Assembly (NCBI RefSeq): GCF_004102945.1
Contig: NZ_CP019384.1
Coordinates: 1,530,001-1,562,000 of the forward strand
DNA length: 32,000 nucleotides
Direction of reading: 5' to 3'
Source of the DNA: Candidatus Velamenicoccus archaeovorus
Lineage (GTDB): Bacteria > Omnitrophota > Gorgyraeia > Velamenicoccales > Velamenicoccaceae
Shown here: in pieces, positions 5,334-26,148 of the stretch
Layout of the letters: every line of letters starts with the position of its first letter
Position numbering within the stretch: the stretch's first letter is position 1
Translations under genes and position numbers: made by a program
Notes under the pieces: model-generated
Database searches by the model: none
Told to the model about the DNA's origin: nothing
The model's input: the letters and a program-made list of their open reading frames with translations, nothing else

Positions 5334-5795
5334 CTATTTCCCCGCCTTTTTCAAAAGATCGCGCAATTCCGACATGAACTGGTTGACGTCCTTGAACTGG
5401 CGATAGACAGAGGCGAAGCGCACGTAAGCGACTTCATCCAGAGACGCCAGCCTGTCCATAACGAGTTCGCCCACATCCCTGGAGCGGACCTCCCGGTCGA
5501 ACTTCCTGGAGATCTCGCGTTCGATACCGGTCACCACCTCTTCCATCTTCTCCAGGGAAACAGGTCTTTTCTCGCAGGCCTTCAATATCCCCGAGAGGAT
5601 CTTTTTGCGGTCGAAGGCCTCCCGGCGGCCATCCTTCTTGACGACCATCAGGGCCGTCTCCTCAACAACCTCATAGGTGGTGAAGCGACGGCCGCATTTG
5701 GTGCATTCCCGCCTGCGGCGCACGGCATTGCCTTCGGAGCTCGCGCGCGAATCAATCACTTTATCGTCAACACAACCGCAGTAGGGACATTTCAT
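5334..5795 (-). CDS. nrdR: transcriptional repressor NrdR (zinc ribbon + ATP-cone)
   Basis: 153 aa. MKCPYCG...[28 protein letters not shown] followed by an ATP-cone ([16 protein letters not shown]...[10 protein letters not shown]). Confidence 0.95.
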
Positions 5796-6252
5796 TAATT
5801 TTGCCTATAACCGGGTATTAATTCCTTACAAAATTAGGCCCTCCGCTTACTTGGTATTACCTGGCTCAATCGGATGAGCCAGTATGCCGTCCAGCGGGAC
5901 GCACCCGCTTATCCTATTAAAGCGGGGTGCAGCTTTCTGCGGCATGCGGAGGCCTACCCTTTCTGGGTTAACTCCGCACTTACTCGATCTGCTGAAACAG
6001 CAGACCAGGAAAATTTACGCCGGATGGCCGTCCTGGCCGGCTGCGCCCAGGCCGACGGCCTACCCTGGCGGAAATTTTCAAGCGCCCAAGTGCGGAGTCA
6101 ACGTTTATTCCTTAACTTTGCCTATAATGAGGTATTTTTCCCTGCAAAGTTAACTCCGAGCCTGCGAAAGAAATTTCACGCCGGTCTACCCTGGCGTGAA
6201 ATTTACGAGCGTCGAGGCGAGGAGTAACGCTTATTCCTTAATTTTGCCTGTA
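5796..6252 (-). repeat. mosaic hairpin-repeat block (P, S, H modules) upstream of nrdR
   Basis: P boxes lie at 5795-5836, 6112-6153 and (degenerate) 6231-6252. S hairpins are CTGGCTC/GAGCCAG 5861-5882 and CCCGCTT/AAGCGGG 5904-5925. H hairpins are 5970-6098 (arms AACTCCGCACTT/AAGTGCGGAGT) and 6152-6225 (inner stem AAATTTCACGCC/GGCGTGAAATTT). The region is homologous to 20198-20690 and 22125-22370. Confidence 0.85.
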
Positions 6253-6271
6253 GCGAGAAATCGCTTCGCTC

Positions 6272-6387
6272 CAAAAAACAAAAATGAACGGGTTGGCGGG
6301 TTGACGGGTAAGCGGGTTAGCGAATCGAGAACTAAAACAAGCTTTTCTCTTTTAACCCGTGCACCCGTTTACGCATGCACCCGCTTA
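6272..6387 (-). terminator. probable intrinsic terminator of the glyA-comEB unit, built from periodic 8-mers
   Basis: Read on the minus strand just after the comEB stop, four ACGGGT-type 8-mers (6386->6355) face four ACCCG-type 8-mers (6320->6289). These are followed by TTCATTTTTGTTTTTT (6288->6273). Confidence 0.45.
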
Positions 6388-14829: not shown

Positions 14830-14841
14830 AATAGGAGCCAA

Positions 14842-14978
14842 TCACCAATAACCAGGATACAATCATCAAAAAAATTCCAAACACCAATAACCAATCTTCC
14901 AAAAGCCATCTCTTTGATTATTGAAATTTGGTTATTGGTCATTGTTTGATTATTGTAGCTTGGAAGTTGGTTATTATG
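14842..14978 (-). promoter_or_regulatory. AT-rich structured spacer upstream of purQ with four CCAATAACCA-type boxes (candidate attenuator)
   Basis: Direct copies are CACCAATAACCAgg 14843-14856 and CACCAATAACCAat 14882-14895. Inverted copies are TTGGTTATTGGT 14928-14939 and TTGGTTATTA 14967-14976. A T7 run on the minus strand (14877->14871) follows one alternative hairpin. Confidence 0.45.
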
Positions 14979-15671
14979 TTACAGTCTGTGATAAAACTTG
15001 TTGATGATATGGACCACATCTTCGGGTTTGTCGACCAGGGAAAAAAGGCTCAGGTCGCTCTCGCCAATGCAGCCGCGGCGCAGCATCACGGACATGATCC
15101 AATGCAGTAATCCCCGCCAGTAGCGCCCGCCGACCAAAATGACGGGAAACTGCGGGATGCGCCCCGTCTGGATGAGGTTCACGGACTCAAACAACTCGTC
15201 CATGGTCCCGTATCCTCCCGGAAAGATGACGAATGCCTTGGCGTAACGCACGAACATCACCTTGCGCACAAAGAAATAATGGAACTCCAAAAGCGTATTG
15301 ATATAAGGATTGGCCTTTTGTTCCGTCGGAATATAGATATTGAGGCCGATGGAGGCGCTGCCGGCGCGCGAGGCGCCCTTATTGGCAGCCTCCATGATGC
15401 TGGGGCCCCCGCCGGAAATAATCTCATAGCCCGCCCTGCCCAACAGATACGCCGTCTTCTCCGCAAGCTTATAGTATTCATCCTTCGGCGTCAATCGCGA
15501 AGACCCAAAGATCGAAACCGCATTCCTGAATTTTGAAAGGGCGCGAAAACCCCTGTCAAACTCTTTAGCAATGCGCTGCACCCGCGCGCGATCGCCTTCC
15601 TCGAATTCATCGATCCGCATATGGAAATTGATGGCCTCTGTTTTTGATCTATGTTTTCCTGTCTTGTTCAT
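14979..15671 (-). CDS. LOG / TIGR00730-family nucleotide 5'-monophosphate nucleosidase-like protein
   Basis: 230 aa. SIFGSSR, GGGPSIMEAANKGA and the LOG signature PGGYGTMDELFE. It starts 4 nt after the purL stop. Confidence 0.85.
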   Translation of the reverse strand: MNKTGKHRSKTEAINFHMRIDEFEEGDRARVQRIAKEFDRGFRALSKFRNAVSIFGSSRLTPKDEYYKLAEKTAYLLGRAGYEIISGGGPSIMEAANKGASRAGSASIGLNIYIPTEQKANPYINTLLEFHYFFVRKVMFVRYAKAFVIFPGGYGTMDELFESVNLIQTGRIPQFPVILVGGRYWRGLLHWIMSVMLRRGCIGESDLSLFSLVDKPEDVVHIINKFYHRL

Positions 15672-15675
15672 GGGA

Positions 15676-18591
15676 TCAAACGGATTTCAAAGGCTCCTGC
15701 CAGGCCGCTTTCAGAGAAACCACGGGAGTTTCTACGCACCCTTCACCCTTGAGCCCGAAAATCTTCAAGACCGGATGTTCGGTGACACAGCCGGCCAGAC
15801 GAAAGATAGAACCCTTGAGGGCGCGCTCAAAGACCTTGCCGTGCTGACGCTCGACTTCAACGATAAAACGCGAGTGGGACTCGGAAAAAAGAATGGAATC
15901 GTTGCGCTTCTGACGGCCGCTCCAAACAACGTCGCTCAAGAAAAGATTTGCGCCCAGGCCGCCGGCCAGGCACATCTCCGCCAACGCAACGCCCAGGCCG
16001 CCTTCGGAGCAGTCATGGATGGAACACACGAACCCCTTGGCCGAGGCCGCCGCCAGACGGTGCATGAGCCTGCGCGCCCCGGCAAAATCGACCACGGGCA
16101 CCTGGCCGCCCCTGGCCTTGATCCGCTCGTAATAATGCGAACCGCCGAGCTCCGGCCGCGTCTCTCCGACGACATAAATCAGGTTTCCTGGCGTCTTGAG
16201 ATCCATCGTGACACAGCGGCCGACATCGGCCATGACGCCTATCGCCGAAATCAAGAGCGTCCCGGGGATCGCGATGGTCCTTTTGCCATGCGTGAATTCA
16301 TTGTAAAAACTGTCCTTGCCGGAGATGAATGGAACGCCGAAGGCCTTGGCCGCGTCATAACATCCGTAGGCGGCGCGCACAAGGGCGCCCAGCCGGTCCG
16401 GCTTATCGGGATTCCCCCAGCAGAAATTATCCAGGATCGCCACTTCATCGAGGGGGCATCCGACGGCCACTAACTGCCGCAAGGCCTCATCGATGCATCC
16501 GGCCGCCATCCAGTAAGGATCCAGGTCGCCATATTTAAAATTAATGCCGTTGGAAACTGCAAATCCGCGCAGAGAATCGAAACGCGGTTTAATGACACAG
16601 GCATCCGACGGCCCGTCATTGGCGGCGCCGACGAGGGGTTTGACCACCGTACCGCCCTGCACCTCGTGGTCATACTGACGGATGACCCATTCCTTGGAGG
16701 CGATATTGGGCATGGACAAAAGCCCCAGCAAATCCTGTGTAAGGTCTTTTTTGGGACGGCGCGCTTTCTCTTTGATGCGCGGCGCCTGCCAGGAGGCGCG
16801 TTTGGTCGTGCGCGGCAGGCCATCGTGCACGAAGGCCATGTCCAGATCGCATACCTTGTGTCCGTCATAGAAAAGCTCAAGCCGGCCTGAATCCGTGAAT
16901 TCCCCGATAACGGTCGCCTCCACATCCTGCCGGCGGAAGAGATCGACGAGCCTCTCGACCTTGTCTTTGGCGACAGCCAAAACCATCCGCTCCTGGGCCT
17001 CGGAGATCCATATCTCGGTATAACTCAACCCGTGATACTTCAAAGGCACTTTCTCCAGCATGACGCGCGCCCCGCACTCCGCGCCCATCTCCCCAATGGC
17101 GCTGGACAAGCCGCCGGCGCCGCAATCCGTAATCGCCTCATAAAGCCCTTCATCACGCGCCAGAAGGAGAACATCGAGCACCTTCTTTTCGGTGATCGCA
17201 TTGCCGATCTGGACAGCCCCGGAAGACAGGCTTTCGGACTCGTGCGTCAGCTCGCCCGAGGAGAATGTTGCGCCGTGGATGCCGTCACGGCCGGTCCTGC
17301 CGCCGACGACAACGATCACCTCGCCGGCAGAGACCTTCTTGAAAGATCTGTCTTTAGGCAGGATGCCGACTGTCCCGCAATACACCAGAGGATTGCCGAC
17401 AAAACGCTCGTCAAAAAGGACCGCGCCGTTGGCCGTCGGAATCCCCATCCTGTTGCCGTAATCCCGGACACCGCTGACCACGCCTTTCATGACGCGGCGG
17501 GGAGCCAAAGCCCCCTGAGGAAGCTTTTGTGCCGGATAATCCAGGGGCCCGAAACAGAAAACGTCAGTGTTCAAAATGGGCTTGGCCCCCAGACCCGTCC
17601 CGAGGGGATCGCGGATGACGCCGCCGATACCGGTGTTAGCGCCTCCATATGGCTCCAAGGCCGAGGGATGATTGTGGGTCTCGACCTTGAAACAAAGATT
17701 GAAGCGGTCGTCAAAACGGATGACACCGGAGTTGTCCTTAAAAACAGAAACACAATAGGGCTTTTTGAGCTGCTGCGTCGCCTTCACGATCGTCTCTTTG
17801 AGAAGGTTCGGGATGACACGGCTGCCGATCTTCCTGACATGGCAGGAACCGCTCGCCTTCTCGCGGTAATCGATCCGGCCGCGGAACGTCTTGTGGACGC
17901 AATGCTCCGACCAAGTCTGCGCCAGGGTCTCGAGCTCGCAGTCCGTGGGATTGCGCTTGAGCAAACGGAAATGGCGCTGGATCGCGCGCATCTCCTCGAT
18001 ATTAAGATAAAGCTGGCCCGTGCGGCTCAAGCGCTCCAGTTCCTTATCGCAAAGATCCACGATATCGACGATCTTAAGGGAAAACGCATAATCGGGGATA
18101 TTCGAAAAATCGCGCAGGCTGTGCTGGTCTTCCGGCAGAACGGATTGGATCAATTTATTGTAGAGGAGCTTCTCGGCTATGGACATGAGGTCCCGGCGGC
18201 CCACCGTCCCTTTGAAAAAATACCTCTTGGCCGTGCGGACGGCATTCACGCTTGAGATCCCCAGATCACGGATACCCCTCAACGTGGATTCTTCCACGGG
18301 CTCCATGACGCCGGGATTATAAATAATCTGCAAAGGGGTATATCCTGCGGGGGTCAAAGGGGTCTGGTCCTGCGCATAGACCTCGAAATCCTCAATGACC
18401 TGGTCGGTCAGGAGCTCTGCGGCGATGCGCCGGGCTTCCGTCTCTGTCGGCGACCCGACGAGAAAATAGATGTGGTGGAGACGGACGTCTGTGACGCCTT
18501 GATACCCGAGGTGGGCGATATCCGCCAGAAGGCCTTCACAGAAACCGCTGAAAACCCCCTCTTTTTCCTTGATTTCTACGCGCCAGTACAT
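15676..18591 (-). CDS. purL: phosphoribosylformylglycinamidine synthase, PurS-PurL fusion
   Basis: 971 aa. The first ~85 aa resemble PurS (MYWRVEIKEKEGV...DVRLHHIYFL...EDFEV). The rest is FGAM synthase II (HCVHKTF, ETHNHPSALEPYGGA, DCGAGGLSSA, DCSEGGLGVA). Confidence 0.9.
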   Translation of the reverse strand: MYWRVEIKEKEGVFSGFCEGLLADIAHLGYQGVTDVRLHHIYFLVGSPTETEARRIAAELLTDQVIEDFEVYAQDQTPLTPAGYTPLQIIYNPGVMEPVEESTLRGIRDLGISSVNAVRTAKRYFFKGTVGRRDLMSIAEKLLYNKLIQSVLPEDQHSLRDFSNIPDYAFSLKIVDIVDLCDKELERLSRTGQLYLNIEEMRAIQRHFRLLKRNPTDCELETLAQTWSEHCVHKTFRGRIDYREKASGSCHVRKIGSRVIPNLLKETIVKATQQLKKPYCVSVFKDNSGVIRFDDRFNLCFKVETHNHPSALEPYGGANTGIGGVIRDPLGTGLGAKPILNTDVFCFGPLDYPAQKLPQGALAPRRVMKGVVSGVRDYGNRMGIPTANGAVLFDERFVGNPLVYCGTVGILPKDRSFKKVSAGEVIVVVGGRTGRDGIHGATFSSGELTHESESLSSGAVQIGNAITEKKVLDVLLLARDEGLYEAITDCGAGGLSSAIGEMGAECGARVMLEKVPLKYHGLSYTEIWISEAQERMVLAVAKDKVERLVDLFRRQDVEATVIGEFTDSGRLELFYDGHKVCDLDMAFVHDGLPRTTKRASWQAPRIKEKARRPKKDLTQDLLGLLSMPNIASKEWVIRQYDHEVQGGTVVKPLVGAANDGPSDACVIKPRFDSLRGFAVSNGINFKYGDLDPYWMAAGCIDEALRQLVAVGCPLDEVAILDNFCWGNPDKPDRLGALVRAAYGCYDAAKAFGVPFISGKDSFYNEFTHGKRTIAIPGTLLISAIGVMADVGRCVTMDLKTPGNLIYVVGETRPELGGSHYYERIKARGGQVPVVDFAGARRLMHRLAAASAKGFVCSIHDCSEGGLGVALAEMCLAGGLGANLFLSDVVWSGRQKRNDSILFSESHSRFIVEVERQHGKVFERALKGSIFRLAGCVTEHPVLKIFGLKGEGCVETPVVSLKAAWQEPLKSV

Positions 18592-18629: not shown

Positions 18630-18658
18630 ACTATAGCAGAAAAAACGACAAAAATCAA
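18630..18658 (-). promoter_or_regulatory. extended -10 promoter of the purL operon
   Basis: The minus strand reads TTGATT (18658->18653), a 17-nt spacer ending cTGc, then TATAGT (18635->18630), about 40 nt upstream of ATG 18591. It is nearly identical in layout to the promoter at 20700-20728. Confidence 0.55.
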
Positions 18659-18904: not shown

Positions 18905-20197
18905 TCACAAACCCAGGTTCTTGAAGATCCTGTTGATGTGCCGCAGATAATACCTGATGTCGAAGCACGCTTCGATCTCACCGGTGCTCAGGTGACGCTT
19001 GACCTTCGGATCGCTCAATAGGACGCCCTTAAAATCCCTGTTGAGCGAACGCGACGTAAACGCATTCTTCTGGACGATATCGTAAGCCACCGGCCGGCTC
19101 AGGCCTTTTTTCATCAACGCCAGAAGCACGCACTGGGAATAGATCAGACCGTTGGTCCGCCCCAGATTGACGAGCATGTTCTTAGGATACACATCGAGCC
19201 CCTCAGCCACCTCGATAAAAAGATTGAGGACATAGTCCAAGGCGATCGTCGAATCCGGCAGGACCACGCGCTCCACCGACGAATGGCTGATGTCGCGCTC
19301 ATGCCACAGGGCGATATTCTCAAGGCCGGCCATGGCATTGGCGCGCAGGAGGCGGCTCAAACCGCAAATCCGCTCGCAGATGACGGGGTTACGCTTGTGC
19401 GGCATGGCCGAAGACCCTTTCTGGTGTTTACCGAACGGCTCCTCGGCTTCCTGGACCTCGGTGCGGCTCAGATGCCGGATCTCGATGGCAAACTTCTCCA
19501 GAGAAGATCCTGTCATCGCCACGCTCATGAGGCAGGCGGCATGACGGTCGCGCGGGACAACCTGCGTGGAGCCGTAAGAAACCCCGAGGCCCAGTTTGGA
19601 ACAGACATATTCTTCGACCTCGGGTTCGATGTTGGAATACGTACCGATGGTCCCCGAAAGCTTGCCGACGGCAATGCCGTGCTGCGTGGCCCGTAGCCGT
19701 TCGAGATTCCTCTTCATCTCGTCGTGCCAGAGGGCTACTTTAAGACCGAAGGTCGTCGGTTCGGCGTGCACGCCGTGCGTCCGGCCGATGCAGGGGGTCT
19801 CTTTATATTTTTTGGCTGTTTTCGCCAGGATCGGCAGCAATCTCTCCACGTCTTCGATAAGGATATTAAAAGCATCCCGCATCTGCAGGGCCAGGGTCGT
19901 ATCCAACACATCGTTGGATGTCAGCCCCATGTGGATATATTTGGCGTCCGTCCCGAGACTCTCGGAAAGGTTATTGACAAAGGCGACGACATCATGCTTG
20001 GTCTTCTCTTCGATCTCCTTGATCTTCTGGATGTCGATCTTGGCCTTGGCCTTGATGGCAGCGATGGACTTTTTGGGAATGCGCCCCAGCTTTTGCCAAG
20101 CTTCGCACACACAGAGCTCGACAGCCAGCATGATATCGAACTTGTGTTCTTCGCTCCACACCTTGGCCATCTTCGGCAGACAATAGCGTTCGATCAT
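18905..20197 (-). CDS. purB: adenylosuccinate lyase
   Basis: 430 aa. MIERY..P.M...WSEE.K, HMGLTSNDV, and GSSAMPHKRNP (the fumarate-lyase signature). Confidence 0.95.
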   Translation of the reverse strand: MIERYCLPKMAKVWSEEHKFDIMLAVELCVCEAWQKLGRIPKKSIAAIKAKAKIDIQKIKEIEEKTKHDVVAFVNNLSESLGTDAKYIHMGLTSNDVLDTTLALQMRDAFNILIEDVERLLPILAKTAKKYKETPCIGRTHGVHAEPTTFGLKVALWHDEMKRNLERLRATQHGIAVGKLSGTIGTYSNIEPEVEEYVCSKLGLGVSYGSTQVVPRDRHAACLMSVAMTGSSLEKFAIEIRHLSRTEVQEAEEPFGKHQKGSSAMPHKRNPVICERICGLSRLLRANAMAGLENIALWHERDISHSSVERVVLPDSTIALDYVLNLFIEVAEGLDVYPKNMLVNLGRTNGLIYSQCVLLALMKKGLSRPVAYDIVQKNAFTSRSLNRDFKGVLLSDPKVKRHLSTGEIEACFDIRYYLRHINRIFKNLGL

Positions 20198-20690
20198 GCG
20201 TCACCTCTTAATTTTGTCTATAACAGAGTTTCTATCCCTTGCAAAATTAACTCCAAGCCTGCGAGAGAAATTTTACACCGGCCCACCCTGGTGGAAAATT
20301 TCCGAGCGCTTAGGCGAGGAGTAACGTCTATTCCTTGATTTTGCCTATAACAGGGTAACTTTTCCTTACACCTGGCCCTATCGGAAAGGGCCAGTACGCC
20401 GCTTTCTGCGGCGCAAAATCAACCCCGAGTCTGCGAAGAAAATTTTTGCCGACCCATCCTGGCAAAAATTTTCAAGCGTTTAGGCAAGGGGTAAACGCTT
20501 ATTCCTTAATTTTGTCTATAACAGGGTTTCTATCCCTTGCAAAATTAACTCCGAGCCTGCGAGAGAAATTTTACACCGGGTGGCGAAGCCCCCCTGGTGG
20601 AAAATTTCCGAGCGCTTAGGCGAGGAGTAACGTTTATTCCTTCTTTTGCCTATAACCAGGCATTTATTTCTCTCAAAATCAATTCTCTTA
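20198..20690 (-). repeat. 3.5 tandem mosaic hairpin-repeat units forming the purB 5' leader
   Basis: Units lie at about 20204-20328, 20329-20498, 20499-20633 and 20634-20690 (degenerate). P stems are 20208-20217/20241-20250, 20335-20344/20413-20422 and 20506-20515/20539-20548. H hairpins are 20249-20322, 20421-20492 and 20547-20628. Confidence 0.9.
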
Positions 20691-20699
20691 ACGGGGCTT

Positions 20700-20728
20700 A
20701 CTATAGCAGAGTTCAGGACAAGAGTCAA
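20700..20728 (-). promoter_or_regulatory. extended -10 promoter upstream of the purB repeat leader
   Basis: The minus strand reads TTGACT (20728->20723), the 17-nt spacer cttgtcctgaactcTGc, then TATAGT (20705->20700). Confidence 0.55.
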
Positions 20729-20760: not shown

Positions 20761-20786
20761 AAAAAAAGATGCCGCTGGGGGCATCT
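20761..20786 (-). terminator. Rho-independent terminator after the 111-aa membrane protein gene
   Basis: The minus strand reads AGATGCC-cccagc-GGCATCT followed by TTTTTT(T). Confidence 0.75.
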
Positions 20787-22124: not shown

Positions 22125-22370
22125 GCGTCTCCTTGATTTTGCCTATAACAAGGTTTCTATTCCTTGCACCTGGCCCTATCGGAAAGGGCCGCACCTTGCC
22201 TCATTGGACTGGCAAGTGCGCCACCTTCTGTGGCGGTGCGCCGCTTTCTGCGGCGCAAAATCAACTCCGGGCCTGCGAAAAAAGTTTTTGCGGACTGGCC
22301 AGCTTCGCTGGCCGAGTCCTGGCAAAAATTTTCAAGCGCCCGCCACCACTGCTTAGGCGGACCCGCCGAT
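22125..22370 (-). repeat. mosaic hairpin-repeat unit (expanded P/S + H) between the cupin gene and the EamA gene
   Basis: P stem TTGATTTTGC 22133-22142 pairs with GCAAAATCAA 22255-22264 and encloses four GC hairpins (22171-22190, 22191-22219, 22218-22238, 22238-22256). The H module from 22263 has an apical GGCCAGC-ttc-GCTGGCC insertion (22297-22313). Confidence 0.85.
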
Positions 22371-22467
22371 CTTTAGGGACGGGCATCCCACAGGTTAAAG
22401 CCGGGGATGCCTGTGAAGGATTAGAAATTCCTTCAGCATCGGTTATTAGAAATTTAACCGCGTAATC

Positions 22468-22800
22468 CTATTCCCTGATCATCGTCAAGAGCATCTTGAA
22501 GCGCTCTTTGGCAAATACCGCGTGAGGCACGCCTGCCGGCATGATGACGAGACCTCCGGCCGACGCCACGACTTCGTCGTCGCCGATCAAAAGCCTGGCC
22601 TGCCCCTCCAGGACCTGGACAACGGCATCGAAAGGCGCCGTATGCTCGCTTAGATTCTGCCCGGCATCAAAAGCAAAAAGCGTCATGGTCCCCGCCGCTT
22701 TATCGACGAGGGTCTTGCTGACGACGGCCTGAGACGCGTAGGCGACGTCTTCTTTCAATTCAATCACATGTCTAAGCATTCCGTCTTCTCCTAGAAGCAC
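22468..22800 (-). CDS. cupin domain protein
   Basis: 110 aa with a single cupin barrel pattern (FDAGQNLSEHTAPFDAVVQVLEG...VIMPAGVPHAV). The start is uncertain (22800 or ATG 22779). Confidence 0.7.
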   Translation of the reverse strand: MLLGEDGMLRHVIELKEDVAYASQAVVSKTLVDKAAGTMTLFAFDAGQNLSEHTAPFDAVVQVLEGQARLLIGDDEVVASAGGLVIMPAGVPHAVFAKERFKMLLTMIRE

Positions 22801-25959: not shown

Positions 25960-25987
25960 TTGCCAACCCCCCGGTCTTTGATATAAT
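25960..25987 (+). promoter_or_regulatory. extended -10 promoter of the gcv operon
   Basis: TTGCCA (25960-25965), a 16-nt spacer ending tTGa, then TATAAT (25982-25987). Confidence 0.55.
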
Positions 25988-26064
25988 ACAGATACAACTT
26001 GGTAACAAAAGCTTCTGGCGACATGGAATCAACCATGAGGAAGCGTATTTGAAAGAAAATCGTG

Positions 26065-26093
26065 AGCCTGGGTTTTCGTAACCAGGCTTTTTT
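26065..26093 (+). terminator. intrinsic terminator inside the gcvT 5' leader (attenuator candidate)
   Basis: AGCCTGG (26065-26071) pairs with CCAGGCT (26082-26088). The stem is extendable to CCTGGGTT/AACCAGG and is followed by the run TTTTTT ATT. It lies 55 nt upstream of ATG 26149. Confidence 0.6.
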
Positions 26094-26096
26094 ATT

Positions 26097-26137
26097 GCCG
26101 CAGAAAGCGGCGCACTGGCCCATCCAATTGGGCCAGG
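26097..26137 (+). repeat. S-module hairpins of the mosaic repeat family, plus-strand copy in the gcvT leader
   Basis: GCCGC-agaaa-GCGGC (26097-26111) and CTGGCCC-atccaatt-GGGCCAG (26115-26136). This is the reverse complement of the arrangement at 20372-20413 and 22171-22256. Confidence 0.8.
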
Positions 26138-26148
26138 TGTAAATAACC

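Follow-up and report, generated by a model that had tools for sequence, protein, structure and literature searches.

Mosaic and palindromic repeats have been described in the intergenic regions of a number of bacteria. BOX elements from Streptococcus pneumoniae follow the scheme boxA-(boxB)n-boxC and have been judged likely parasitic, yet able to affect expression (Croucher et al., 2011, PMC3049150). Correia elements (CREE or NEMIS) from Neisseria are single units of 100-155 bp, with terminal repeats of about 26 bp, a TA target duplication and an IHF site (Snyder et al., 2009, PMC2649163). REPINs are mobilised by a RAYT transposase and share a conserved head sequence (Bertels and Rainey, 2011, PMC3116915; reviewed in PMC2229807). 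Here, a repeat family is described that occurs in the ultra-small, predatory Candidatus Velamenicoccus archaeovorus and in a few other Omnitrophota, a group of uncultivated, mostly ultra-small and partly predatory bacteria. The analysed window is a stretch of 32,000 nucleotides from this genome (contig NZ_CP019384.1, positions 1,530,001 to 1,562,000), and the element under study is the third of four palindromic cores in an array upstream of purB. Of ten window proteins looked up, eight are identical to database entries for this organism, previously called OP3 LiM. With a probability of roughly 60%, this core is one unit of a mobile, expanding and lineage-specific mosaic repeat of the BIME/REP, BOX, ERIC or Correia kind, which either inserts at translation starts, in the sense direction, or persists only there, and which becomes part of the leader transcript and supplies the ribosome-binding region. 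The family resembles intergenic mosaic repeats, and it is neither a new kind of regulatory RNA nor a gene-specific riboswitch. Whole modules are gained, lost and multiplied between close strains, and a unit is invariably found immediately ahead of a start codon or Shine-Dalgarno sequence, in the orientation of the gene. The stems of one long hairpin module (H) and, less clearly, the stem of the core (P) stay complementary through paired changes.

Within the window, the family takes up three intergenic stretches, upstream of nrdR (5795-6290), of purB (20198-20690) and of an EamA-NUDIX gene pair (22125-22470). The core TTTTGYCTATAAC is present in eight copies in these arrays. All copies are on the plus strand and upstream of minus-strand genes, so the minus strand, which is sense to the genes, is the better one on which to read the element. 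The inverted-repeat pattern of the window exceeds chance: it contains 50 perfect 9-mer inverted-repeat pairs (gap 3-120 nt), compared to 21.1 +/- 5.6 (maximum 32) in 30 dinucleotide-preserving shuffles, and 22 of the 50 fall inside the three arrays (4.5% of the window). A preliminary description of this DNA had listed ten pairs of arms, all of which were located and recovered again by an independent repeat search. Its stem P corresponds to the pair of 9-nt arms flanking the P core, and was said to stay perfectly complementary while enclosing 22, 68 or 112 nt. Eight of the ten listed arm pairs are indeed perfect, and all three sizes exist. The pair TTAACTTTGC/GCAAAGTTAA (6112-6121/6144-6153) encloses 22 nt, and TTGATTTTGC/GCAAAATCAA encloses 68 nt at 20335-20344/20413-20422 and 112 nt at 22133-22142/22255-22264, in each case with 0 mismatches. 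Both TTAATTTTGT/GCAAAATTAA pairs (20208/20241 and 20506/20539), on the other hand, have one T.G mismatch on the plus strand and enclose 23 nt, not 22. No mismatch occurs in the four H stems or in the apical hairpin at 22297-22313. The longer P forms do carry extra GC hairpins, two in the 68-nt form and four in the 112-nt form, sitting directly after TTTTGC of the left arm of the element.

Read in the sense of the genes, a unit is composed of three kinds of modules: the long hairpin H, the promoter-like P core of 40 nt, and small GC hairpins. The layout of P is TTRATTTTG, 15-16 nt of A-rich sequence ending in ACCY, GTTATAGG, CAAAATYAA and AGGA. In this way, a 9-bp inverted repeat encloses a promoter-like TTG-N15/16-TATAGG, after which comes a brief A-rich leader, and the right arm (CAAAAUYAA) passes into an AAGGA that resembles a Shine-Dalgarno. 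The last P of an array joins the gene itself, as CAAAATTAAGAGGTGACGCATG for purB, CAAAATCAAGGAGACGCATG for EamA and CAAAATTAATG, without Shine-Dalgarno, for nrdR; AAGGAG or AAGAGG is fused to the right arm upstream of EamA, purB and rplS. All cores, including those of distant genomes, have an unchanging TTG and TATAG at a spacing like that of promoters, and conservation is much stronger in the arms than in the spacer and flanks in genomes down to 73% PurB identity. H is an imperfect hairpin of 75-150 nt located between successive P cores, and the U-rich left arm UUGAUUUUG comes after it. From its base, ACYCC/GGRGT, inward, it consists of GCCT/AGGC, a 4-nt bulge, a GC clamp and an AT-rich stem, and ends in a variable apex that holds further hairpins in some copies. 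The small hairpins measure 17-25 nt and have GC stems of 5-8 bp; the loop is CAGAARG in type a and TCCRAT in type b. Loops of P, of other stems and of further small hairpins serve as their insertion sites, and inside the arrays they form strings of 2-5. As short, GC-rich, imperfect palindromes in extragenic mosaic clusters, they show one of the features by which REP, BIME and REPIN sequences are recognised.

The gain and loss of modules is apparent from related strains. Presence/absence polymorphism with intact empty sites is found at EamA, at nrdR and between trmD and rplS (L075 and L006 versus L204). The EamA insert, which measures about 330 nt in the window, is absent from L120 (98% PurB identity) as well as from the outgroup L188, which indicates that the insertion is derived. 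Upstream of purB, L169 has the arrangement core-H-core (two cores, one H), L120 has the same with small hairpins nested in the second core, and the window has four cores and three H, i.e., two extra units of about 126 nt each. Four states are seen at nrdR. The site is empty in L279, where GGAGCGAAGCGAC directly precedes the ATG and the Shine-Dalgarno is intact. L278 has an insertion of 293 nt ending in CAAAATTA immediately before the ATG. The window has a further 126-nt unit in register, and 43 nt of hairpins inside the loop of hairpin a, whose stem GCCG/CGGC is retained while its content grows from 7 to 50 nt. Lastly, L271 has only one H and one P (stop-H-P-ATG), directly between the upstream stop codon and nrdR. 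The nrdR leader ranges from 116 to 592 nt among near-identical strains. The insertion has pushed the native Shine-Dalgarno about 300 nt away (293 nt in L278), and the ATG now follows directly on TATAGG-CAAAATTA; the gene is intact in three lineages. All insertions seen are in loops and none in stems. The increase from 22 to 112 nt did not come about by gradual change of a single structure, as discrete small hairpins were inserted instead: stems that are preserved while their contents expand are the product of nested insertion of discrete hairpin modules into loops, caught here as polymorphism. Contigs of related strains often end inside the arrays. In L121, L122, L124, L191, L192, L281, L282 and L284, the short-read contig ends 44-119 nt upstream of purB or nrdR. 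Such breaks in the assemblies indicate that the repeat is multi-copy.

At purB, the array follows a promoter of canonical sigma-70 type (P0), which is kept in L120, L169, L188, L189 and L190. Because both P0 and a canonical terminator of the preceding gene lie upstream, the array is most simply a 500-nt mRNA leader. The features are collected in Table 1.

Table 1. Coordinates of the repeat arrays, their modules and adjacent signals (window positions).
Feature	Position	Strand	Remarks
purB leader array (holds the element under study)	20198..20690	-	four P cores and three H hairpins between sigma-70 promoter P0 and the purB start codon at 20197
P core 3, purB array (the element under study)	20335..20422	-	arms TTGATTTTG/CAAAATCAA; promoter-like spacer and two nested small hairpins
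Small hairpins nested in P core 3, purB array	type a 20395-20415, type b 20372-20394	-	
P core 4, purB-proximal	20208..20250	-	right arm continues into purB Shine-Dalgarno (CAAAATTAAGAGGTGACGCATG, minus strand)
P core 2, purB array	20506..20548	-	duplicate of core 4, 97% identical
P core 1, purB array	20641..20683	-	right arm with one-base deletion (CAAAAGAAGG), giving an imperfect stem
H hairpin 3, purB array	20250..20322	-	outer arms ACTCC/GGAGT
H hairpins 2 and 1, purB array	H2 20422-20492; H1 ~20548-20630	-	
Promoter P0, canonical sigma-70 type, upstream of entire purB array	20700..20728	-	TTGACT-17-TATAGT, upstream TG
Intrinsic-terminator-like site of gene preceding purB array	20767-20786		
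nrdR leader array	5795..6262	-	parts listed separately
nrdR array, partial core	6238-6262	-	
nrdR array, H1	~6154-6237	-	
nrdR array, P core, TTAACTTTG version	6112-6153	-	
nrdR array, H2, large, branched	5963-6113	-	
nrdR array, stem GGCCTCCGC/GCGGAGGCC with nested small hairpins	~5838-5955	-	
nrdR array, gene-proximal P core	5795-5837	-	right arm abuts nrdR ATG, without Shine-Dalgarno
EamA leader array	22125..22470	-	P core 22133-22264, four nested small hairpins 22172-22257
EamA array, H module	~22265-22345	-	apical hairpin 22297-22313; further hairpins reach cupin stop codon
Free-standing doublet of small hairpins a and b	26096..26136	+	just upstream of gcvT, sense; loops CAGAAAG, TCCAAT

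To find the family in other genomes, different collections were scanned, and true relatives were sorted from chance matches by BLAST and profile. A 17-mer pattern returned 119 stretches from the genome collection, almost all of them chance matches, the real ones being L002, L006, L035 and L075. In the metagenome collection, where the family is rare, 5 of the 63 stretches found with a 21-mer pattern were real (L128, L130, L134, L169 and L182). The scan of viral contigs gave 60 chance matches and no real family members. Carriers form three groups: close strains of the same lineage (L120, L123, L128, L182, L130, L134, L169 and L002), the more distant MAG242 (L006 and L035, 73% PurB identity), and L075. 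Besides purB (L120, L169) and nrdR (L271, L278), the family is found upstream of rseP (L002), of rplS (L006, L075) and of the gene following a miaA-like gene (L130), and every located copy is sense to its downstream gene. It was not found in the purB regions of the closer relatives L188, L189 and L190 (78-83% PurB identity), in the purB leaders of MAG242 and L269, or in the rplS regions of L193-L208. The purB leaders of L188, L189, L190 and MAG242 are short and unrelated. This patchy distribution could be due to horizontal spread, loss or thin sampling. A conserved trmD-rplS element in relatives of L006 was considered and rejected, as the P0199 genomes have an unrelated GC-rich spacer of 200 nt and the P0197 genomes a gap of 22 nt. 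Rfam 15 gave no window hits at gathering score, and E-value searches of two arrays yielded sub-threshold chance hits only (best 20 bits, compared to a gathering score of 39). In the literature on Ca. V. archaeovorus and Omnitrophota, no description of the repeat family was found.

The preliminary description had also proposed that double changes keeping the stems paired indicate selection on a folded strand. For H, the pairing is well borne out. A covariance model built from 10 copies recovers 15 copies from several genomes, all in sense orientation. In their alignment 95.8% of the cells are paired, and 7 of the 18 pairs have changed on both sides, in 21 cells. The covariation score was reached by none of 500 shuffles, and pairing falls to 31-59% when the partners are slid by one to three columns. 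This alignment was fitted to the covariance model, which favours the structure. RNAalifold consensus folding, a check that had been suggested beforehand, was run on an independent MAFFT alignment and gave the same helices with five compensated pairs. The clearest covarying pair is the outer-arm change that had been pointed out from the window, ACTCC/GGAGT versus ACCCC/GGGGT (CG in 7 and UA in 7 of the 15 copies). H is best read as subject to single-strand pairing, or to a process that depends on such pairing.

For P, the evidence is modest. Because inserted hairpins would disturb the alignment, the loops of sixteen distinct arm pairs were swapped for a fixed GAAA linker. Of the cells, 91% are paired. 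Two of the nine positions covary, i.e., position 3 (A-U, G-C, C-G) and position 5 (U-A, C-G), and the other seven almost never vary. The observed covariation was reached by 11-23 of 500 shuffles, and there are exceptions to pairing: A.C in L075, G.G and G.U in L120, G.U at nrdR in L271, and three arms affected by indels. The complementary versions of the stem are real, and the relatives even add a fourth (TTCATTTTG/CAAAATGAA in L130), but the repeated versions in the window are duplicates of whole units. Its five P examples are not independent, as the segments at 20208 and 20506 are 97% identical (repeat family D5) and those at 20335 and 22133 are 92% identical (D7), which leaves three unit lineages and at most two independent double changes. 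The orthologous purB-proximal core has G-C in L169, G.U in L120 and A-U in the window. This series can equally represent a compensatory path through a wobble pair or a hybrid core resulting from gain and loss of units.

Two arrays fold far better than shuffled sequences on the sense strand (z = -4.5 and -6.8). Choosing the strand by folding energy was abandoned (z = -4.5 for sense versus -6.5 for antisense), since both strands fold well and the energy is thus uninformative on this point. The wobble counts on the sense strand are 9 G.U versus 4 A.C for H and about even for P. We lean weakly towards sense-strand RNA rather than single-stranded DNA. The strict sense orientation at eight or nine independent loci argues for a role of transcription, which fits an RNA role and a promoter or ribosome-site role alike.

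If the family is a mobile mosaic repeat, the arrays would be transcribed as part, or as the start, of the mRNA leader of the downstream gene. They would provide the ribosome-binding region and may, in addition, contribute a promoter and a hairpin-plus-U terminator or insulator upstream. Spread may occur via recombination or via a trans-acting enzyme working on folded single strands, and array length would shift by unequal crossing-over between the direct repeats. Stem complementarity would be retained because the fold matters for propagation or for the behaviour of the mRNA. Several observations weigh against such a reading. Firstly, the covariation statistics are soft because the copies collected (about 20 distinct P cores and 15 H copies) are few and many are related by duplication. 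Secondly, target-site duplications are not clear: AAGRR stands beside some cores only, with AAGAG or AAGGA flanking the purB cores and no clean duplication at the nrdR and EamA junctions. Thirdly, the distant MAG242 (73% PurB identity) carries the family, and none was seen in samples of about 20 kb from closer genomes. Moreover, no transposase or other mobilising gene turned up in the window and about 9 kb of flank, although no search for one was made. Lastly, the P core departs from the consensus promoter. A scan for sigma-70 promoters (a TTGACA-like -35, a spacer of 16-18 nt, and a TATAAT -10 whose positions 2 and 6 are A and T) picks up P0 and the promoter of purL, whereas no P core (TTGNNN-15/16-TATAGG or TATAGA) is called. 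The -10 of the cores, TATAGG or TATAGA, lacks the final T, and their spacer measures 15-16 nt, compared to TTGACT-17-TATAGT in evident promoters. The P core may still be a promoter of a weak or unusual type. Two canonical promoters of nearly the same sequence, GATTGAYT...TGCTATAGTAA (repeat family D12), lie upstream of purL (18630-18658, minus strand) and of the purB array (20700-20728, minus strand), and illustrate the ordinary promoters of Ca. Velamenicoccus archaeovorus.

The strongest competitor, which we hold to be considerably less probable, gives the promoter a larger part. Each H+P unit would be an independent transcription cassette, with P as a real promoter (start about 8 nt after TATAGG) and H plus the U-rich left arm as an intrinsic terminator. 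On this view, the internal units would encode, in tandem, hairpin small RNAs of about 100 nt, with predicted 3' ends in UUGAUUUU. The last P would drive the protein gene, giving a leaderless mRNA for nrdR and mRNAs with a 5'-terminal Shine-Dalgarno for the others. This overlaps with the mosaic-repeat reading, the main difference being what is transcribed from where. The invariance of TTG and TATAG at promoter-like spacing down to distant genomes argues for it, as does the start of nrdR 8 nt after TATAGG in three lineages, following the loss of its Shine-Dalgarno to the insertion, and the position of the L271 unit directly between a stop codon and nrdR. Also consistent with it is the GC-rich base of H (ACYCC/GGRGU) followed by UUGAUUUUG, as a GC-rich stem with a U tract defines a terminator. 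At its 75-150 nt with internal loops, H exceeds the limits of the terminator scan, which flagged one local sub-hairpin as terminator-like. However, H is much longer and more interrupted than the evident terminators of the genome. In addition, the lack of a conserved final T in the -10, the short spacer and the negative consensus scan mentioned above speak against a promoter in P, and the small hairpins behind TTTTGC turn the -35 TTG into GTG in four cores, two of them gene-proximal. Besides, the canonical P0 already stands ahead of the purB array, and conservation covers the entire 22-nt spacer, beyond the two hexamers. If promoter and terminator are real, the unit would be a natural portable expression part and an entry to the rules of promoters and leaderless translation in an unstudied phylum.

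A bolder version, to which we attach a somewhat lower likelihood still, sees in the H+P unit a "gene boundary" cassette that propagates itself and combines terminator, promoter and ribosome site. Such a cassette would insert exactly at translation starts, cut genes from operons and be able to make nrdR leaderless, and its stems would be kept for a single-strand-specific enzyme that recognises the fold. If true, such a mobile element would carry expression signals alone and rewire transcription units in a genome-reduced predatory bacterium.

It is rather doubtful that the P stem persists without selection, through recent birth of the core, duplication of whole units and palindrome-templated (template-switch) copying between the arms. 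The identical versions in the window are duplicates, the P statistics are weak, and mismatched hybrid cores arise where units are gained or lost (L120b, with G.U), all of which this explanation accommodates. It can also draw on the left junction of the nrdR insertion (window 6255-6275, minus strand; L278 9685-9705), where the native AGCGAAG pairs with the inserted CTTCGCT (AGCGA/TCGCT in the window). This palindrome, built from native and inserted sequence, hints at a fold-back or template-switch step in insertion. On the other hand, the arms outconserve spacer and flanks across genomes at 73% PurB identity, insertions spare the stems, and the cross-genome covariation of H, which is hard to obtain without constraint, fits this explanation poorly.

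An action of the P palindrome as DNA is unlikely. The arms would then form an operator for a dimeric regulator bracketing the promoter, or a recombination or cruciform site, and match because both follow one half-site consensus. Although this agrees with the near-invariance of seven of the nine arm positions, with wobble counts that have no strand preference and with a promoter-like core between the arms, a shared consensus fails to explain A-T, G-C and C-G versions at a single position. Furthermore, the half-sites tolerate insertions of 46 and 90 nt between them, and the orientation relative to the genes is strict. The segment between the inverted repeats has the identical orientation in about 20 cores from several genomes; as it was never seen inverted, P is not an invertible promoter.

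Least probable is a gene-specific cis-regulatory RNA of nucleotide metabolism (a riboswitch or protein-binding leader), as the preliminary description implied: two of the three window sites precede purB and nrdR and the third operon has a NUDIX hydrolase, H covaries and all copies are sense, but orthologous loci do not conserve the element (it is missing from the purB leaders of L188, L189, L190 and MAG242), and it also precedes rplS and rseP, varies from one to three H modules at one locus and has no Rfam match, and the empty nrdR and EamA sites in close strains essentially exclude it.

Some other candidates were rejected as well or fit the data poorly. A sigma-54 reading of GG-N10-GC in GGAGTTAATTTTGC lacks the TGGCAC part; moreover, several cores have TTGA or TTGT, so that GC is not a conserved feature. 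The 9-10-bp arms bracket only the 22-nt core, and ends resembling those of miniature inverted-repeat transposable elements, or a bidirectional terminator, would require the right arm of one core to pair with the left arm of the next around H, which is the case at 2 of 9 junctions, compared to 11 of 17 for arms of the same core. Small open reading frames behind the internal AAGGA motifs were dismissed, because start codons at a suitable distance are absent and no peptide is conserved. A self-cleaving ribozyme, a type III toxin-antitoxin repeat, an integron attC site and a dif-like site were dismissed by the lack of an Rfam hit and by misfits in unit size, spacing or motifs. Lastly, an alternative 5' hairpin AAGCGTTTA/TAAACGCTT, which would compete with the base of H, has perfect arms in just a single unit, and in the other units it is weak.

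Additional observations concern the surroundings of the arrays. The doublet of hairpins a and b at gcvT is the same module as the one nested inside P cores. The leader of this gene (25961-26148, plus strand) has a canonical promoter TTGCCA-17-TATAAT, after which come a terminator-like hairpin with a T run (AGCCTGG...CCAGGCTTTTTTAT) and, just before the ATG, the doublet. Operons containing gcvT often have a glycine riboswitch; Rfam found none in the leader (25961-26148). In the purB leader of L188 (5000-5160), a relative with 83% identity, P and H are absent, and other GC hairpins are present, one of them with the loop CAGAAAG. The P/H family may thus have a narrower distribution than the small hairpin modules. 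Just after the stop codon of a dCMP deaminase gene, a long hairpin at 6290-6385 (minus strand) is made up of CGGGT motifs (three) and AACCCG motifs (four), and a T run comes after it. L278 and L279 have kept this hairpin and L271 lacks it; it is probably the operon terminator. Antisense-strand mechanical open reading frames of 110-204 aa cross the arrays at 5874-6227, 19724-20338 and 22133-22465 (plus strand), and annotation pipelines would likely call them hypothetical proteins. Different repeats occur elsewhere. The intergenic region between a LOG-family gene and purQ (14841-14979) holds repeated inverted CCAATAACC / GGTTATTGG motifs and a 32-nt tandem duplication (family D14), and differs from the P/H family. 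Upstream of tgt, L193 (7855-8005), from another Omnitrophota genome, carries a palindromic intergenic repeat unrelated to the family (GGTGAGACTAAAGGTC / GACCTTTAGTCTCACC), in which the segment ACCAAAGGTGAGACTA... recurs. PurS and PurL are fused into one protein of 971 aa (15676-18591, minus strand), as in every relative examined.

No interspersed repeats are described for Omnitrophota in Rfam or the literature searched. The family is a practical marker of strain variation and a source of expression differences, as it displaces native ribosome-binding sites. It also breaks metagenome assemblies and causes spurious calls of open reading frames on the opposite strand.

Compared to the known systems, the family shares most of its general traits with BOX elements: modular intergenic repeats with a variable number of internal modules, extensive predicted RNA structure, restriction to a narrow lineage, and insertion differences between strains (PMC3049150). 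Co-transcription with neighbouring genes is known for BOX (PMC3049150) and would be expected for the Velamenicoccus family. There is no sequence relationship, however, and the host belongs to another phylum (PMC3049150). The Velamenicoccus family, moreover, has a promoter-like core and a Shine-Dalgarno-like tail, and every copy seen is sense and abuts the start codon or Shine-Dalgarno. BOX elements, in contrast, are present in both orientations and at varied distances from genes. Like the Correia elements, the family is small and non-coding and has inverted repeats; Correia elements can create promoters next to genes and hairpin RNA, and their presence differences between strains alter adjacent expression, as may be the case here (PMC2649163). 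They differ in that the 9-bp arms of the Velamenicoccus family bracket only a 22-nt core, and in its head-to-tail arrays, separate long hairpin and lack of a clear target duplication. REP, BIME and REPIN sequences from enterobacteria and pseudomonads are likewise extragenic, short, GC-rich palindromes in mosaics, with stems kept by paired changes and rapid evolution within the genome (PMC3116915, PMC2229807). It is this class that the small a and b hairpins resemble most. REP clusters are usually located at 3' ends or between convergent genes, and are not known to be fused to ribosome-binding sites. A further likeness is found with reused or 'mobile' promoters, highly similar upstream regions that stand before unrelated genes within and between genomes and rewire expression (Nijveen et al., 2012, PMC3575422). 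These are defined by similarity only (PMC3575422). The Velamenicoccus segment, in contrast, has a palindromic and hairpin anatomy and a putative promoter. For cyanobacteria, Elhai and colleagues reportedly described in 2008 small dispersed repeats that insert so as to extend existing hairpins. These are said to nest in repeats and hairpin loops with the host stem preserved, in a phylum and with sequences that differ from those of the Velamenicoccus family. Altogether, the family works like BOX, Correia, REP/BIME/REPIN and reused promoters, but is a member of none of them, as it has no sequence relationship to these systems, a different anatomy and a strict fusion to start sites.

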